Origin: Minisyncoccota bacterium
GTDB lineage: Archaea > Nanobdellota > Nanobdellia > Pacearchaeales > GW2011-AR1
Direction of reading: 5' to 3'
DNA length: 64,000 bases
Assembly (NCBI GenBank): GCA_035453125.1
Contig: DAOTCN010000002.1
Coordinates: 138,715-202,714, forward strand
The notes under the pieces are model-generated. The model did not search any database. It was not told the DNA's origin and was given only the letters and a program-made list of their open reading frames with translations. Of the stretch, positions 1,528 to 13,087 are shown piece after piece (within the stretch, counting starts at the first letter, position 1; each line of letters begins with the position of its first letter). Both the position numbers and the translations under genes were made by a program.

Positions 1528-2946
1528 TTATTTTTTTATAAATGTATTAAAAGCCATTTTCACATCGTCAAAAATTTCTCCTTTTTTTATACTCCTAATC
1601 AACCTACTTGCAATGTAACTTGGCCTAAAATAAAACCTTTTATGAAATTTATCATAATATTCTTGAAGTGTCTCCCAAGAAAGAGTAGGATGATTATATA
1701 CTCTTGAAGCTGTATGAAAATTGTATTTTGTCCAATCTTTAGTTGTTAAAAGCCCTTTCTTTTCAAATTCCTCAAAAACCTGTGTTGATGGAAGTGGAAC
1801 AAGTATTGTTGCTTTTGCATAATCAAGACCTAAAGAAATAGCAAAATCAATTGTCTGATCCATTGTTTCTTTTGTATCTTCTGGAAGACCTAACATAAAA
1901 AAACCAGATGTTTCCATTCCTGCTTCTTTTGCCCATTTAACAGCATTTCTTGCTTGTTCTGTTGTTGCTCCTTTATTTATTGAATTTAAGATATAATCAT
2001 TTCCCGACTCAAAACCAAAAGCTACTTTGTAACATCCTGCTTTAACACATTTTTCAAAGAATTCTTTGTCAACGCAGTTAACTCTAACACCGCACTCCAA
2101 CTGCCAAGAAAATTTTAAACCTCTAGAAACAATTTCATCACAAACTGCCTTTGCTCTTGGAAGATCTGTAGCAAACATGTCGTCCCAAACATGAATCTCT
2201 TTAAATCCATTCTTTAATAACAACTCAAATTCATCTACAACCCTTTTAACAGATTTTGCTCTAAACTTTCTTCCAAAAACAGATTTATTACAATATGTAC
2301 ATCCATAAACACATCCTCTTGAAGTACCTATTGTTCCAACAGGATTTTCTCTTGCAATTGCTTTTGGATTCATATAAATCTTAGAATTAAAAAGATGCCA
2401 TGCTGGCATTGGAAGACTATCAAGATTTTCAACTAACAGTCTTGGAGAATTTTTTACTATTTTTCCATGTTTATCTTTATATGCTAATCCTTTAATTAAT
2501 TTTAAAGATTTACCTTTGACAATCTCCTGCAATGTTATATCCCCCTCACCAAAAACCACCATGTCAATTTCTTCTATTTTTGCAACTTCTTCTGGAAAAA
2601 TTGTTGAATGAACACCTCCTGCAATTATCTTTATTTTTGGAAACTTTTGTTTTATAAATAATGCAACACTTTTTGCTTCTTCGAATAATAAAGTTGTAAA
2701 GGTAATTCCAATATAATCAGGATTATAGTTATTTATTATCTCTTCAATTTCTTTATAAGGCTCTTCTGATACTTGAAGATCTAAAATTTTACAATCATTT
2801 CCAGTATTTAGTACACTACCTGCTAACTCTGCCATTGAAACAAATGGCCTGGGAGCAATTATTCCTTTAAGAGCTGACTTGCCATAAACTTTTATTGTAG
2901 ATGGCATATTCATTAAAAGGACTTTAACCTGTTTTTTGACCATCAT
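1528..2946 (-). CDS. B12-binding-domain radical SAM enzyme
   Basis: CxxxCxxC cluster motif SRGCVYGCTYC preceded by a Rossmann-like cobalamin-binding-type N-terminal domain (IIAGGVHSTIFPEE). 472 aa. Confidence 0.8.
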   Translation of the reverse strand: MMVKKQVKVLLMNMPSTIKVYGKSALKGIIAPRPFVSMAELAGSVLNTGNDCKILDLQVSEEPYKEIEEIINNYNPDYIGITFTTLLFEEAKSVALFIKQKFPKIKIIAGGVHSTIFPEEVAKIEEIDMVVFGEGDITLQEIVKGKSLKLIKGLAYKDKHGKIVKNSPRLLVENLDSLPMPAWHLFNSKIYMNPKAIARENPVGTIGTSRGCVYGCTYCNKSVFGRKFRAKSVKRVVDEFELLLKNGFKEIHVWDDMFATDLPRAKAVCDEIVSRGLKFSWQLECGVRVNCVDKEFFEKCVKAGCYKVAFGFESGNDYILNSINKGATTEQARNAVKWAKEAGMETSGFFMLGLPEDTKETMDQTIDFAISLGLDYAKATILVPLPSTQVFEEFEKKGLLTTKDWTKYNFHTASRVYNHPTLSWETLQEYYDKFHKRFYFRPSYIASRLIRSIKKGEIFDDVKMAFNTFIKK

Positions 2947-3043: not shown

Positions 3044-4519
3044 ATGAAAGTTCTATTTTTGTATAATCGATTTGAAAGTTTAGGTATTGAAATATTGTCA
3101 GCTATACTAAAAGAAAAAAAACATGAAGTCAAACTTGCATTTGATCCCCAATTATTCAATGATGGATATTTAAATATTCCTTATTTAAGTAAAAGGTATG
3201 ATTATACTCAAAAAATCCTAAAATATATAAAAGAATATCAACCAGAAGTTATATGTTTTAGTGTTTTAACTGATAATTACCAATGGGCGTTAAAACTTGG
3301 AAAAATAATCAAAAATGAATTTAATATTCCAATAATATTTGGTGGTGTTCATGTTACTTCTGTTCCTGAAGAAGTAATGTCTAATGATTTTATTGATTTT
3401 GCTATAATTGGTGAAGGAGATATTGCCTTAGTTAAACTGCTTGATTGTATTGAAAATAATAAAGATTATAAAAAAATAAAAAACCTTGTTTTTAGAAAAA
3501 AAGGAGAAATTATTAAAAATGATGTTGGAAATCTAATTAAAAATCTTAATTCCATTCCATTTCCGGATAAAGATATATTCTATGAATTTATTCCATTTGC
3601 AAAAAAAACATATTCAATTATGACTGGGAGGGGATGTCCATTTTCCTGTACTTATTGTTTTAATAGTATGTACAAAAAAATTTACAAAAATAAAGGAGTA
3701 TATCTAAGAAAAAGAAGTGTTGATAATGTAATTCAGGAGTTAAAAGAAAGAAAATTAAAATATAATTATAATTTTGTATCAATACTTGATGATGTTTTTA
3801 TGACTGATGAAAAATGGACAGAAGAATTCTGTAAAAAGTATTTAGAAAATATCAATTTACCTTTTAGGTGTATAGGCCATGTTAACTGTATAAATGAGAA
3901 TATTGTTCAAATGCTAAAGAAATCCGGTTGTAAAATAATCCAAATTGGTGTCCAAACTACTTGTGACTACACTAGAAAAAATGTAATAAAAAGATATGAA
4001 ACAAATGATGCGATAAAAAGGGCAGCAGAAATAATAAAAAAATATGGAATTTCTTTAGAAATAGATCATATAATTGGTTTTCCTTATGAAACAGAGAATG
4101 AACAGATAGAAGCAGCAAAGTTTTATAATGAAATAAGGCCAGAAATAATAAACTGTTATTGGTTAAAATGTTTTCCAGAGACAGAAATAATTCAACATAT
4201 GATTAAAGATAAAAAGCTTATTGAAAAAGATGTGGAATCAATTAATAAAGGATTGGAGGCCTCTTATATAAGTGGAGGAAGTGTTAAAAATATGAAAGAA
4301 ATGAAAAAATTTTTCTCATTATTTAATATGATTTCCATATTACCTAAATCTTTTGTTAATTACATAATCAATCATAAGTTATATTACTTAACTAACTTTG
4401 GTAAAACATTTATGATTTTTATAAGAAGTATTAAAAGCATATTTTCAATAGACATAAGACTTCTTGAATTTTTTTATTTCTATAAAAGATATATTTTTAA
4501 ATCAATAAGATTAAATTAA
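3044..4519 (+). CDS. B12-binding-domain radical SAM enzyme (paralogue type 2)
   Basis: GRGCPFSCTYC radical SAM motif and N-terminal IIFGGVHVTSVPEE B12-binding-like domain. 491 aa. Divergent from 1528-2946. Confidence 0.8.
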   Translation: MKVLFLYNRFESLGIEILSAILKEKKHEVKLAFDPQLFNDGYLNIPYLSKRYDYTQKILKYIKEYQPEVICFSVLTDNYQWALKLGKIIKNEFNIPIIFGGVHVTSVPEEVMSNDFIDFAIIGEGDIALVKLLDCIENNKDYKKIKNLVFRKKGEIIKNDVGNLIKNLNSIPFPDKDIFYEFIPFAKKTYSIMTGRGCPFSCTYCFNSMYKKIYKNKGVYLRKRSVDNVIQELKERKLKYNYNFVSILDDVFMTDEKWTEEFCKKYLENINLPFRCIGHVNCINENIVQMLKKSGCKIIQIGVQTTCDYTRKNVIKRYETNDAIKRAAEIIKKYGISLEIDHIIGFPYETENEQIEAAKFYNEIRPEIINCYWLKCFPETEIIQHMIKDKKLIEKDVESINKGLEASYISGGSVKNMKEMKKFFSLFNMISILPKSFVNYIINHKLYYLTNFGKTFMIFIRSIKSIFSIDIRLLEFFYFYKRYIFKSIRLN

Positions 4520-9720: not shown

Positions 9721-10758
9721 TTAATCTATTTTATTCTTTTCGGTATACCATTTAATTAAACAAACATTTGTTACCCATGTGTTAAGAATATCTGTTGAAA
9801 GACCAATTGCAATTATAAAAAATAATTGAAAAAAAACTTCTGAAAATGAAGAAGTAATCAAAAGACCAATCAAGACAACAGACAATGAAGTAAGTGTCAT
9901 TGTTATGCCTGTTTTAAATGAACTAAAAATCCTTGAGTTAATACCCCCTCCTTTTCTTTTTAGTACTCTTGTTGTTAAAAGTATATCGGTATCTACACTA
10001 TAACCAATTAACATCATAAAAGCAACAATACCTGCTGTTGAAAGTTCCATCCCAATTAAATTAACTACTGATAAAGTCATAAACAAATCAGCAAATGCAC
10101 ATATCATAATCAAAAATGCAGGAATACTATACTTAATGTAAATTAAAGAAGAAATTACTAAAAAAACAAATGATAAAATAAATGCTAAATTGATAGGTAT
10201 TATTCTTAACATAAAAAATAAAACAGGCACTAATGAAGCAAGAAAAATAACTAATAATTTCATTTTTAAATTATCTGAAAAAATAAAAAATAGTACTGCT
10301 CCCATAAATAAGAAAGAAAAAATAACTGCCAAAATTAATTGAGTATATGAATCTCCTGCAATTGTTGAACCAGTAAATTCTATGCTGCTATTCTTATCAT
10401 CTAACTTAAATCCCAAATATTCTTCTAAAAAAGGAGTTATTTCTTCAGGTTTTAATTTTGTTTCAACAATAAATGCAACTTGTTCTCCTGTTAAAATATT
10501 AGATACTTGTCTTATTGAAACATCACCAAATTTTTCATCAAGAACTTTTTCTAAAGCTGAAATACTAGTATTAGAAGTTATTTGGATAGATGTTCCTCCT
10601 GTTAGAGTAATGTCTTTCTTTATTAAGTCTCCATTTTGATTATAAAAAGAAACCATGAATACTGTGCATATTAAAAGTATAACTGCAGGTACAATAAGTA
10701 TTTTTTTATAATTTTTATTAAAAAAATTGTTTATTTTTTCTTTTGTTGAATCTTTCAT
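9721..10758 (-). CDS. secF: protein-export membrane protein SecF
   Basis: 345 aa with N-terminal TM, extracytoplasmic domain and C-terminal TM bundle (GYSVDTDILLTTRVLKRK). Adjacent to secD. Confidence 0.75.
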   Translation of the reverse strand: MKDSTKEKINNFFNKNYKKILIVPAVILLICTVFMVSFYNQNGDLIKKDITLTGGTSIQITSNTSISALEKVLDEKFGDVSIRQVSNILTGEQVAFIVETKLKPEEITPFLEEYLGFKLDDKNSSIEFTGSTIAGDSYTQLILAVIFSFLFMGAVLFFIFSDNLKMKLLVIFLASLVPVLFFMLRIIPINLAFILSFVFLVISSLIYIKYSIPAFLIMICAFADLFMTLSVVNLIGMELSTAGIVAFMMLIGYSVDTDILLTTRVLKRKGGGINSRIFSSFKTGITMTLTSLSVVLIGLLITSSFSEVFFQLFFIIAIGLSTDILNTWVTNVCLIKWYTEKNKID

Positions 10759-10803
10759 TTGAACAAAAATTGTGAGTTATACTTACTTTTAAATTTAACT
10801 AAA

Positions 10804-10898
10804 TGCACCAGCCGGGAGTCGAACCCGGGTCATCTGGTCTCTTCAACTTTAAATAACGATTTGGAAGCCAGAGATACTAACCACTATACTACCGGTGC
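10804..10898 (-). tRNA. tRNA-Gly(TCC) with an approx. 23-nt intron at the canonical 37/38 position
   Basis: Minus strand: GCACCGG TA GTAT AGTGGTTA GTAT C TCTGG CTTCCA[intron AATCGTTATTTAAAGTTGAAGAG]A CCAGA TGAC CCGGG TTCGACT CCCGG CTGGTGC A. Acceptor, anticodon and T stems all pair. Confidence 0.85.
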
Positions 10899-10920
10899 AA
10901 TTAGATTACATAATAAACAC

Positions 10921-11151
10921 TAAAATTTAGTTTAATAAACCTTTCTCAAGCACTTCTGAAAGACACTAAAAATTCAATCTAAATTTTAGTAACCCTTAAT
11001 TCTTACAAATGTAGGTATTTGAAAAATCCTTCCTAGAATATAAGCGCTCCCGGAAGGCACTAAAAAATCTTTTAGATTTTTGGTGACCATTCGCACTAAT
11101 GTGCTCATGTATTTGAAAAATCCTTCCTAGAATATAAGCGCTCCCGGAAGG
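10921..11151. repeat. tandem repeat (94-bp period, about 2.4 units) built from a tRNA 3' end plus trailer and a hairpin
   Basis: The 43-mer gtatttgaaaaatccttcctagaatataagcgctcccggaagg is identical at 11015-11057 and 11109-11151. The 51-nt spacers (10964-11014, 11058-11108) are diverged homologues, each with a CACTAAAAA..TTTTTAGTG-type hairpin. A degenerate third copy lies at about 10940-10963. Confidence 0.85.
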
Positions 11152-11179
11152 ATTTGAACCTTCGACCTTTGGGTTAGGA
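11139..11179 (-). pseudogene. 3' portion (about positions 33-73) of an interrupted tRNA-Arg(CCT) paralogue ('tRNA-X')
   Basis: Minus strand: TCCTAA CCCAA AGGTC GAAGG TTCAAAT CCTTC CGGGAGC G. The T arm pairs. The acceptor 3' strand is perfectly complementary to GCTCCCG at 12278-12272. Confidence 0.7.
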
Positions 11180-11254
11180 CGCCCCCGGTAGGAATTGAAC
11201 CTACAACCTTCAGCTTAGGATGCTGCTGCGCTATCCAGATTGCGCCACGAGGGC
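11180..11254 (-). tRNA. tRNA-Arg(CCT), intact
   Basis: Minus strand: GCCCTCG TG GCGC AATCTGGATA GCGC A GCAGC ATCCTAA GCTGA AGGTT GTAGG TTCAATT CCTAC CGGGGGC G. The cloverleaf is complete, with one G-U in the acceptor and one G/A at 27:43. Confidence 0.85.
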
Positions 11255-12220
11255 AAAATTTTTTAAGTTCCTACTATTTGAAGAACCTATCTCGTTAATC
11301 CATTTACTCAATTGTTTTGTACCTTTTAATTTTAGCTGTTCTACCCCTGTTTTGTTCATATAATGAATTACTTTATAACCTTGATTAAGGAGTATACTAC
11401 TTATTTGCCTTATTAAGATTGGAGATTTTAATGAAATTGAAATACAAGGATATGGTTTACCTGCAGGAGTCTTATCAAAATAAACACACCCATCTGTATC
11501 AAGTATACCTTTTATAACATACTTAGTTTTATTAAATTCGAGATTATATATTTTATTTGAAATCTGTAGATTAACTTTTTTTCCTATAGGAAAACCTAAC
11601 TGAGTATTTAATTTTTGAATGAGTATTTTGTGTCCAAGATTAATCTCAACAGAATTGTTTTTAGGTCTTAATTTTAAATAAGCTTCTCTTTTTAATAAAT
11701 CTTTAATTAATTTTTTAAGATAAATAAAATACTCCTTATCTTTAGATAAATTACCACTTAAACCGACAAGATAAAACTTTTTTTCTTTGTGATTTATAAT
11801 ACTTAACCAACCATCACCTAATAAGGCTCCATAAAGTTCTAAGAATTTTACATTTTCAAAATCTATGATAAAACTACTTTCTTTTTGTTTTCTTATAATT
11901 GATGAATTTTTTATTCCTTTTTTTTGTCTTCTTATAATTTCATCATCACCATATTTTCCTTTAATTATCTTGTATGTCTTTCTACCTCCCTTTACACTTC
12001 CCCAATTATCTGTTTTTTTGTCTAAAAAAACTATTGAAGAATACAATTCTTGAGGTATAAGATTAATTGGCAAATAACAATTAGAATAACAGTATTTATC
12101 TAATCTACTTTTTGAAACATTCAATTTTTTAGACAATTCTAAAAGAGAATTACAATTATTTTCTTTTTTAAGAAAATCAAAAAGGATTTTTTTATTTTCT
12201 TTTGATATTAAAACCCTCAT
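11231..12220 (-). CDS. double-motif LAGLIDADG homing endonuclease with an N-terminal HTH-like extension
   Basis: Two LAGLIDADG motifs, LELYGALLGDGWL and VIKGILDTDGCVY, spaced about 100 aa apart. 329 aa. The last 8 codons plus stop (ALVAQSG*) are the first 24 nt of tRNA-Arg(CCT). Confidence 0.85.
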   Translation of the reverse strand: MRVLISKENKKILFDFLKKENNCNSLLELSKKLNVSKSRLDKYCYSNCYLPINLIPQELYSSIVFLDKKTDNWGSVKGGRKTYKIIKGKYGDDEIIRRQKKGIKNSSIIRKQKESSFIIDFENVKFLELYGALLGDGWLSIINHKEKKFYLVGLSGNLSKDKEYFIYLKKLIKDLLKREAYLKLRPKNNSVEINLGHKILIQKLNTQLGFPIGKKVNLQISNKIYNLEFNKTKYVIKGILDTDGCVYFDKTPAGKPYPCISISLKSPILIRQISSILLNQGYKVIHYMNKTGVEQLKLKGTKQLSKWINEIGSSNSRNLKNFALVAQSG

Positions 12221-12254
12221 AGTTTATTAAATAAATTCAAGTATTTAAAATTAC

Positions 12255-12278
12255 CTATCCAGGCTGAGCTACGGGAGC
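12255..12278 (-). pseudogene. 5' portion (positions 1 to about 22) of the interrupted tRNA-Arg(CCT) paralogue ('tRNA-X')
   Basis: Minus strand: GCTCCCG TA GCTC AGCCTGGATA G, then non-tRNA sequence GTAATTTTAAATAC. 18 of 24 nt match the 5' end of the intact tRNA-Arg, including the terminal CTGGATAG. Confidence 0.7.
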
Positions 12279-12316
12279 ATAGTTAAATTTAAATGGATTA
12301 TGTTTATTAAAAATTT

Positions 12317-12592
12317 ATGCTAACAAAAATGCTAGGAATAATTGACATATTGATTGCAATTATCTTAATTTTATTATCTGCACATGTCTTAATTCCAAAA
12401 ACAATTTTAATACTTGCAGCACTAATTTTGTTTGTTAAAGGAATCCCGATATTCAACTTAGACTTGGCTAGTTTTTTTGATATTTATGCAGCAATTCTTT
12501 TAAGTTTAAGTGTTATTTTTACAATACCCGGAATATTATTAATAATCGGTTGTTTTTTACTTATCCAGAAGGGTGCTTTGAGCCTACTTTAA
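12317..12592 (+). CDS. small membrane protein (3 TM), unknown function
   Basis: 91 aa, almost entirely hydrophobic helices. Confidence 0.4.
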   Translation: MLTKMLGIIDILIAIILILLSAHVLIPKTILILAALILFVKGIPIFNLDLASFFDIYAAILLSLSVIFTIPGILLIIGCFLLIQKGALSLL

Positions 12593-12659
12593 TCTTTTAT
12601 TGAACTACTTATACAAAAAATAACTATGTTTAAATAGATAAAATATTAGACAATTATAT

Positions 12660-12743
12660 GCGGGAGTGCCAGAGTGGTCTAATGGGATGGATTTAGGCTC
12701 CATTGGCTTAGTGCCTTCCTAGGTTCGAATCCTAGCTCCCGCA
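12660..12743 (+). tRNA. tRNA-Leu(TAG), class II (long variable arm)
   Basis: GCGGGAG...ATGGA TTTAGGC TCCAT TGGCTTAGTGCCTTC CTAGG TTCGAAT CCTAG CTCCCGC A. Confidence 0.85.
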
Positions 12744-12804
12744 TTTTCTAAGTTAATATTTAATGTTCGAAACATTTAAAAATGGTCAAAAACTGTTAAA
12801 ATTA

Positions 12805-12910
<106 letters not shown>

Positions 12911-13087
12911 ACTTGCTTTTTTTAAAATTGTTTTTTTAAAGATTAAATAATTAATCAATTCTAAGGTAATTAAATTAACAAAATAACAAAAGAGTTAATA
13001 TTATTAGTTTAACATCTCTTGGGGTGTTTTGGTTAAGAGCTTACAATAGTCTAAATAAATTTTTAAATACCTCAATTATAAGAGTTT

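Follow-up and report, generated by a model that had tools for sequence, protein, structure and literature searches.

How does one complete tRNA gene come to lie, together with an endonuclease gene, between the pieces of a second tRNA gene with the same anticodon? The question is raised by a 64,000-nucleotide (nt) stretch of an archaeal contig (DAOTCN010000002.1 of assembly GCA_035453125.1, positions 138,715 to 202,714), hereafter the window, in which a host tRNA-Arg(CCT) gene is interrupted between its D arm and its anticodon loop by a cassette of ~1.08 kb (12254-11180, minus strand). The cassette carries a LAGLIDADG open reading frame (ORF) and an intact tRNA-Arg(CCT). An earlier account made from the sequence alone, here called the sequence-only reading, had offered two explanations, namely a selfish cassette that disrupted the resident tRNA-Arg(CCT) and brought a copy of its own, or an unconventional split or large-intron tRNA. 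The first is strongly supported by the empty sites, the recurrence of the arrangement, and the LAGLIDADG fold described below, and we consider it probable that the locus holds a mobile, selfish homing cassette that breaks the resident tRNA-Arg(CCT) and carries the replacement copy.

On re-reading, the coordinates and sequences of the two outer pieces, the A/T box, the ORF, and the nested intact tRNA were all as that account had given them (Table 1), as was a 24-nt overlap in which the last 8 ORF codons and the stop are the first 24 nt of the inner tRNA. Between the outer pieces the LAGLIDADG gene is the sole ORF, and the cassette-carried copy is the sole intact tRNA-Arg(CCT) at the locus. The outer pieces are not chance resemblances, since a tRNA-Arg profile (nhmmer) matches the 5′ piece at E = 0.007 and the 3′ piece at E = 8.8e-9. 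Their acceptor strands pair 7/7, which bears out the claim that the 3′ strand is fully complementary to GCTCCCG. The inner tRNA, which we call type A (D-stem GCGC/GCGC, anticodon stem GCAGC/GCTGA), has a clean cloverleaf as its minimum free energy (MFE) fold and is almost identical to the inner tRNA of a related locus, L012. Judged by eye, the outer and inner tRNAs are paralogues as proposed, with 18/24 identity in the 5′ piece and a compensatory T-stem pair. An Rfam covariance search of positions 10700-12800 for an overlooked complete tRNA returned none besides the inner one at E ≤ 10. The nested structure is present in three independent assemblies (NCBI, ENA, and Logan), so it is no assembly artefact. 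From its consensus and position, we infer that the box at the left end of the cassette is the promoter of the endonuclease gene.

Table 1. Coordinates of features at the window locus and at comparison loci (L-numbers; related ORF-bearing or metagenomic empty-site loci)
Locus	Feature	Position	Strand	Remarks
Window	Outer tRNA-Arg(CCT), 5′ piece	12255..12278	(-)	GCTCCCGTAGCTCAGCCTGGATAG; tRNA positions 1-22; acceptor 5′ strand, D-stem 5′ strand, D-loop, G22
Window	Cassette left end, A/T box resembling an archaeal transcription factor B recognition element (BRE) and TATA box	12241..12254	(-)	GTAATTTTAAATAC; putative promoter of the endonuclease gene
Window	LAGLIDADG ORF	11231..12220	(-)	329 aa; ends ALVAQSG*
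Window	Intact inner tRNA-Arg(CCT), type A	11180..11254	(-)	Rfam RF00005, 58.6 bits, full length; also called by ARAGORN
Window	Outer tRNA-Arg(CCT), 3′ piece	11139..11179	(-)	TCCTAACCCAAAGGTCGAAGGTTCAAATCCTTCCGGGAGCG; tRNA positions 33-73; anticodon loop from U33, 3′ anticodon stem, variable loop, T-arm, acceptor 3′ strand, discriminator
Window	Native upstream flank of the resident tRNA gene (tentative)	12279..12300	(-)	A/T-rich, TTTAAAT box; final ~15 nt similar, by eye only, to the flank upstream of the tRNA in empty-site L129
Window	Tandem repeat, 94-bp period	10948-11151		Just downstream; takes in the outer tRNA 3′ end
Window	Identical repeat copies, 43 nt	11015-11057 and 11109-11151		3′-terminal 13 nt of the outer tRNA (CCTTCCGGGAGCG) with 30-nt trailer
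Window	Third repeat copy	10948-10997		70% identity
Window	tRNA-Gly(TCC)	10804-10898	(-)	23-25-nt anticodon-loop intron
Window	Lone 5S rRNA gene	12802-12914	(+)	Adjoins tRNA-Leu(TAG) (region 12660-12914); strand opposite to the cassette
L013	Outer tRNA-Arg(CCT) in three clean pieces	2441-2467, 3544-3757
L017	Decayed carried tRNA after the ORF and complete tRNA-Arg(CCT)	1870-2023		Same as L112, L121
L039	Inner tRNA-Arg(CCT) with two intervening sequences	3490-3617		More distant relative

The uninterrupted counterpart of the outer tRNA exists in related genomes. A metagenome collection scanned for uninterrupted outer-type tRNA-Arg(CCT) yielded 53 loci, 50 of them without an ORF homologue; at ~35 of these loci a tRNA-Leu lies 100-900 nt upstream, too close to accommodate the ORF. 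The neighbours of the empty site are those of the window locus (ABC ATPase, RpoN, tRNA-Leu, tRNA-Arg(CCT), tRNA-Gly(TCC), SecF, and SecD), and the closest empty locus, L104, has identities of 84% in RpoN, 76% in the ABC ATPase, and 63% in SecD. These syntenic, ORF-free alleles set the gap, previously put at about 8-10 nt, at exactly 10 nt (positions 23-32, AGCAGTGGGG) and give the reconstructed uninterrupted outer allele as GCTCCCGTAGCTCAGCCTGGATAGAGCAGTGGGGTCCTAACCCAAAGGTCGAAGGTTCAAATCCTTCCGGGAGCG. One allele, L101, is identical to the 3′ piece over 41/41 nt; its contig begins inside the 5′ piece and agrees with the final 16 nt of it. All 24 nt of the 5′ piece recur unchanged at the start of the uninterrupted alleles L128 and L093 and of the L034 tRNA, and L128 and L135 have the same acceptor stem as the outer tRNA. 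ARAGORN calls the two pieces plus the 10 nt as a tRNA-Arg(CCT) and does not call the joined pieces alone. The resident gene is interrupted here and lacks 10 nt, and the site is polymorphic for presence and absence, occupied versus empty at one conserved place, in a comparison that runs between genera and families, not within species.

The arrangement is no isolated occurrence: the layout belongs to a widespread DPANN family. We collected 79 loci with a related ORF from species-representative genomes. At the ~40 distinct loci closest in ORF, which span Pacearchaeota, Woesearchaeota, and Nanoarchaeota, the ORF lies directly upstream of an intact tRNA-Arg(CCT) and usually overlaps it, hence the conserved C-terminal ALVAQxG. 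The tRNA-Arg profile gave partial matches in many loci at the same two places as in the window. In most related loci a 5′ fragment (GCxCCxGTAGCTCAGCCTGGATAG...) is followed immediately by a AAAATTTAAATA box, and in 17/40 distinct loci a second tRNA is represented by its D-arm core, which stops 34-37 nt short of the ATG (up to 3 mismatches allowed in 18), with 0 matches to that core in 314 kb of background. Further loci have decayed versions of the 5′ fragment at the same place. The fixed distance from 5′ piece to ATG indicates a single origin of the left junction. A 3′ fragment directly follows the inner tRNA in 9 distinct loci; it begins at U33 in the window and L008, and likewise in L028 and L035 after 3-6 nt of filler. 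The right junction (G73|T33) is identical in the window and L008 and similar in other loci. Among relatives, the outer pieces are truncated in different ways. In L013 no position is missing between the outer pieces, which end at 25 and resume at 26, and the ancestral insertion is accordingly placed at 25/26.

Two of these loci have further peculiarities. In L013 the order is positions 1-25, the cassette, positions ~26-59, a 175-nt tandem-hairpin insertion in the T loop, and positions ~60-73 (TCCTCCCGGGCGCG); this last piece is complementary to the 5′ piece of the same locus, and neither junction has a bulge-helix-bulge (BHB) motif. In L039 the inner tRNA-Arg(CCT) has intervening sequences in the D loop and after the anticodon.

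More distant relatives of the ORF (among loci L049-L084) lie in or beside other tRNA genes, namely tRNA-Thr(GGT), Thr(CGT), Ala(GGC), Ala(CGC), and Leu(CAA), in Iainarchaeota, Micrarchaeota, Aenigmatarchaeota, Woesearchaeota, and others. In these subfamilies, too, an intact tRNA abuts the ORF, and several of the Thr and Ala loci also retain part of a second, displaced copy: L058 and L073 have a 5′ fragment with a promoter after it, L079 has a 3′ fragment, and L081 and L084 have an intact upstream tRNA with a 3′ piece overlapping the ORF stop. Some loci of the Thr, Ala, and Leu subfamilies have the ORF antisense to the tRNA, as in L049, where the 3′ fragment lies on the promoter side of the ORF. 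One metagenome-assembled genome (MAG), CAZPJW01, carries two paralogues, one beside tRNA-Arg(CCT) (L047) and the other on a second contig (L053).

The protein is consistent with a homing function. The ORF comprises an N-terminal helical domain of ~120 aa followed by a double-motif LAGLIDADG core, in which both motifs, LYGALLGDG (LLGDGW) and IKGILDTDG (ILDTDG), are present. Residues G135/D136/G137 and D241/T242/D243/G244, including both catalytic Asp residues, are invariant in 31 aligned homologues. Matches to the Pfam families LAGLIDADG_2 (residues 129-189, 18.5 versus a threshold of 25) and LAGLIDADG_3 (residues 235-306, 18.9 versus 22.5) fall below gathering, and many homologues carry precomputed PF14528 or PF03161 matches; the ORF is a divergent member of the family rather than a non-member. 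The database holds 239 homologues, and the 119 non-self homologues listed have 41-56% identity and lengths of about 285-360 aa and come from Pacearchaeota, Woesearchaeota, and Nanoarchaeota MAGs. An AlphaFold2 model (mean predicted local distance difference test score of 90.1) matched I-AniI, PI-PfuI, the bI3 maturase, I-Tsp061I, and I-DmoI in Foldseek at E ~1e-10 and probability 1.00, with template modelling (TM) scores to target of up to 0.75 (0.72-0.75 for I-DmoI and I-Tsp061I). The predicted structure thereby confirms the pseudo-dimeric alpha-beta-beta-alpha-beta-beta-alpha LAGLIDADG fold, and the earlier assignment as a double-motif LAGLIDADG protein holds. A sequence search of the PDB returned only a spurious bromodomain, so that the fold search was needed, and an NCBIfam search of the ORF gave nothing useful. 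The ORF is under purifying selection, with ratios of nonsynonymous to synonymous substitution (dN/dS) of 0.07-0.24 overall and 0.21 at dS 0.54 for the closest pair. No second LAGLIDADG ORF occurs within the 64 kb. On viral contigs only distant LAGLIDADG cores were matched, so the cassette is not visibly virus-borne.

Under the homing interpretation, the endonuclease would recognize the D-arm/anticodon-stem region (~positions 15-36) of ORF-free tRNA-Arg(CCT) genes and make a double-strand break near positions 23-32 of the ORF-free allele. Repair from the cassette-bearing allele would then copy the cassette in, with the flanking tRNA pieces, plus neighbouring DNA in close relatives, serving as homology arms. 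At positions 23 and 28-32, type A tRNA departs from the target (CAGCA versus TGGGG at 28-32); judging from these differences, the carried tRNA would escape cleavage and render the disruption harmless. An ORF that runs into the tRNA would keep the two tightly linked, and both are probably co-transcribed from the cassette promoter. By eye, we saw no convincing box at a fixed distance within the 3′ end of the ORF that would mark a separate inner-tRNA promoter, so co-transcription is something we only infer.

Several observations point to repeated or horizontal insertion. In five loci whose 3′ piece is complete, pairing between the outer acceptor halves is 7/7 within a locus, compared with a mean of 5.5/7 across loci, and the five halves all differ (GCTCCCG, GCATCCG, GCTTCCG, GCTCCTG, and GCCCGAG). 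The outer pieces match lineage-specific empty alleles: those of the window match L101/L128/L135, those of L008 match L088/L095/L113 and others, and those of L018 match L137. The window and L008 share their right junction despite different, self-complementary acceptor halves. A shared junction with local arms is the pattern that homing with short co-conversion tracts would give and is suggestive of it; in such co-conversion, the junctions would come from the donor and the distal arms from the recipient. In a neighbor-joining tree of SecF, occupied and empty loci interleave, and the window lies in an otherwise empty clade. ORF identity correlates weakly with SecF identity (Spearman 0.25), with discordant pairs in both directions (L028/L002, SecF 69% and ORF 49%; L008/L002, SecF 49% and ORF 65%). 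Both the tree and the ORF/SecF comparison are single-gene and distance-based, on fast-evolving sequences, and the evidence that they give for horizontal spread is suggestive, not decisive.

Other observations weigh against a mobile, selfish cassette. No closely related occupied/empty pair was found (the best flank identity is ~74-80%), so recent within-species mobility is not demonstrated. Among the matches listed, the nearest ORF has only 56% identity, and thus no donor is sampled. The synteny of the locus and the strong purifying selection also fit a long-resident gene retained by the host. The target site is deduced solely from the insertion position and is to that extent a prediction, and type A tRNA without an ORF could be looked for only in sequence that had been collected by the ORF, a biased sample. 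Many loci have a crisp 5′ piece and no 3′ piece, which calls for extra assumptions, e.g., deletion or recombination within the inner tRNA. Finally, the L017 lineage does not fit a simple model of an immune carried tRNA and an outer-type target. At this locus (and in L112 and L121) a complete tRNA-Arg(CCT), identical to the empty-site alleles at positions 22-38, stands 7 nt beyond the carried tRNA, and the ORF has intact catalytic motifs. Either specificity is particular to this lineage or the target is not simply this stretch. The carried tRNA after the ORF has itself decayed to a pseudogene there.

The main rival, which we regard as improbable, is that the gene is long resident and domesticated, descending from one ancient insertion in a DPANN ancestor that was followed by vertical inheritance and host retention. 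Retention could stem from a dependence of the only tRNA-Arg(CCT) on the cassette promoter or from a regulatory or maturase role gained later; the flanking pieces would then be relics, with the 5′ piece kept as part of the promoter region. The conserved gene neighbourhood, the low dN/dS range together with homologues that are all full length, and the single left-junction origin implied by the fixed spacing are what such a history would leave, as is the comparison of L022 with L023, in which the 5′ piece and promoter are identical at 41/43 positions and the sequence directly before them is scrambled. A target-like tRNA is tolerated beside the ORF in L017, and LAGLIDADG maturases (bI3 and I-AniI) are among the structural matches. 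Pure maturases, however, often lose catalytic Asp residues, which are invariant here. Domestication also sits poorly with a patchy distribution that interleaves with empty sites on the SecF tree and leaves the window in an all-empty clade, and with the weak coupling of ORF and SecF identities. Five loci whose acceptor halves are perfect, mutually different, and matched to local empty alleles would be unexpected for neutral relics of one ancient event.

A more far-reaching version of the homing interpretation, to which we give rather less credence than to domestication, is that the flanking tRNA halves are working, selected, universal homology arms for homing into the tRNA-Arg(CCT) of any lineage and are maybe still expressed in some lineages. 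Such cassettes would then be the long-sought agent of physical tRNA gene splitting in DPANN archaea, and the split tRNA genes of Nanoarchaeota, like tRNA interruptions at non-canonical positions, would have them as their point of departure.

Split tRNA genes are found in Nanoarchaeum equitans and Caldivirga, and archaeal tRNAs with multiple introns exist. Genuine split tRNAs have a complementary leader and trailer that form a BHB, and a complete tRNA is produced. The second explanation of the sequence-only reading was of this kind: the outer pieces would be exons of a functional split or giant-intron tRNA, joined in cis or trans after removal of 1.1 kb. The cassette loci share with the Nanoarchaeum and Caldivirga genes a gene in pieces and non-canonical break points (25/26 and 32/33); the outer acceptor and T stems are intact in the window, L008, L018, L028, and L021, all outer tRNA parts are present in the three crisp pieces of L013, and split and multi-intron tRNAs occur in DPANN archaea, with two introns in the inner tRNA of L039. 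In contrast to genuine split tRNAs, the window lacks positions 23-32, and the joined pieces have an MFE fold without D or anticodon arm and are no tRNA to ARAGORN, which also finds no outer tRNA in the window when introns of up to 1500 nt are allowed. A BHB intron is rejected on a motif search that was empty at the outer junctions of the window, L013, L018, L028, and L035 and recovered the tRNA-Gly intron as positive control; L008 gave one relaxed match, off the junctions (offsets -5/-8, inner helix of 0 bp). Cofolding of the window junctions gave no BHB structure and no BHB-type intermolecular helix, in line with the earlier failure to find a convincing BHB by eye. The variable truncation of the outer pieces in relatives and the redundancy of an outer tRNA next to an intact one with the same anticodon argue the same way. 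Group I introns, which interrupt tRNA and rRNA genes, are frequent carriers of LAGLIDADG genes and are present in the rRNA genes of Pacearchaeota and Woesearchaeota; in the one systematic study of archaeal cases, 39/39 were in rRNA genes (PMC6125680). The cassette has no Intron_gpI (RF00028) match at the gathering threshold or even at E ≤ 10, and a group I intron is rejected. We reject the split or large-intron tRNA as largely refuted and very unlikely. The outer tRNA halves appear dead.

Two tRNA calls deserve mention in this context. In L039 ARAGORN reported a tRNA-Leu with a 1094-nt intron, an artefact in which a 5′ fragment is paired with the 3′ end of the inner tRNA. The window tRNA-Gly(TCC), which ARAGORN misses at its default settings and which scores 53.2 bits with Rfam, has an intron with a relaxed BHB, in which CTTC/GAAG is the central helix and the bulges are CAA and AGA.

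Hardly credible, lastly, is the scar of an integrase-type element or an unrelated tandem tRNA-Arg duplication or rearrangement, with the LAGLIDADG ORF as a bystander: a tandem repeat with a 94-bp period, into which the tRNA 3′ end extends, does lie just downstream, and similar 3′-end duplications occur in ORF-free loci, but there is no integrase, the LAGLIDADG ORF is the sole gene between the pieces, the break falls in the D-arm/anticodon region with a 5′ part and a 3′ part displaced rather than tRNA-3′ attachment (att) repeats, no relatives beyond distant LAGLIDADG cores were found on viral contigs, and dozens of genomes repeat the association of ORF and fragments in a fixed geometry, with other tRNAs taking the place of tRNA-Arg in related subfamilies.

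Set beside known systems, a homing cassette of this kind would combine familiar parts in an unfamiliar way. It resembles I-DmoI, I-Tsp061I, and PI-PfuI in fold, catalytic motifs, and insertion into a conserved stable-RNA gene, and by analogy it would be expected to follow the same logic, in which the empty allele is cut and the element is copied in. Those enzymes are encoded in a self-removing intron or intein, and splicing restores the host product, whereas at the cassette loci nothing splices, and a host gene that has been destroyed is made good by a second, complete copy; the ORF also has the additional N-terminal domain. T4 SegB is encoded by a free-standing endonuclease gene in a phage tRNA cluster; it cuts the rival genome and promotes inheritance of its own gene and the flanking tRNA region (PMC2330249). 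This "intronless homing" among tRNA genes is a parallel; in contrast to the cassette, SegB is a GIY-YIG enzyme of a phage, encoded between genes, with no split target or nested replacement. Integrase elements at tRNA genes, which bring a replacement for part of the gene, likewise restore a functional tRNA and leave a displaced partial copy at the element edge (PMC9897764). They differ in using a tyrosine or serine recombinase rather than a LAGLIDADG protein; the cassette measures ~1.1 kb, and its Arg subfamily brings a complete substitute tRNA and displaces a 5′ as well as a 3′ fragment, with 7-10 nt lost. The closest conceptual analogue is the "fractured gene" arrangement, in which a host gene is physically split by a free-standing endonuclease gene; fractured genes are rescued by trans-splicing split inteins and the cassette by a spare tRNA gene (PMC2677866).

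The statement in the sequence-only reading that no such case had been described stands insofar as the literature searched, whose coverage is incomplete and no proof of novelty, contains no published description of a homing endonuclease gene plus replacement tRNA inside a tRNA gene. The known ways in which homing endonucleases persist are in self-splicing introns, in inteins, or free-standing between phage genes. The cassette appears to represent a third persistence strategy, which is to destroy an essential-type gene and carry a spare copy of it. If so, it would be a new selfish-element design, with Thr, Ala, and Leu subfamilies across several DPANN phyla, and would account for a class of tRNA fragments and "extra" tRNA genes in DPANN annotations. 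It would also provide a concrete mechanism that physically splits tRNA genes in an archaeal group with split tRNA genes, as well as a natural set of meganucleases that probably target highly conserved sequences in tRNA genes.

Beyond the cassette itself, the tandem repeat downstream of the window locus (Table 1) seems to be a scar left at tRNA 3′ ends by insertions of another, unrelated kind. Two ORF-free loci, L114 and L130, have similar duplications of the tRNA 3′ end 50-70 nt downstream, and L051 has one behind a tRNA-Ala. In L001 and L011 the 5S rRNA gene directly follows the cassette tRNA, a placement that differs from that in the window and shows that the cassette-bearing segment has been inverted or rearranged relative to its neighbours across lineages. 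NCBI labels the source as "Candidatus Paceibacterota bacterium," a member of the candidate phyla radiation (CPR). What the DNA encodes is archaeal, RpoN and a BHB tRNA intron included, and the close relatives are without exception Pacearchaeota or Woesearchaeota; the record is probably mislabelled.

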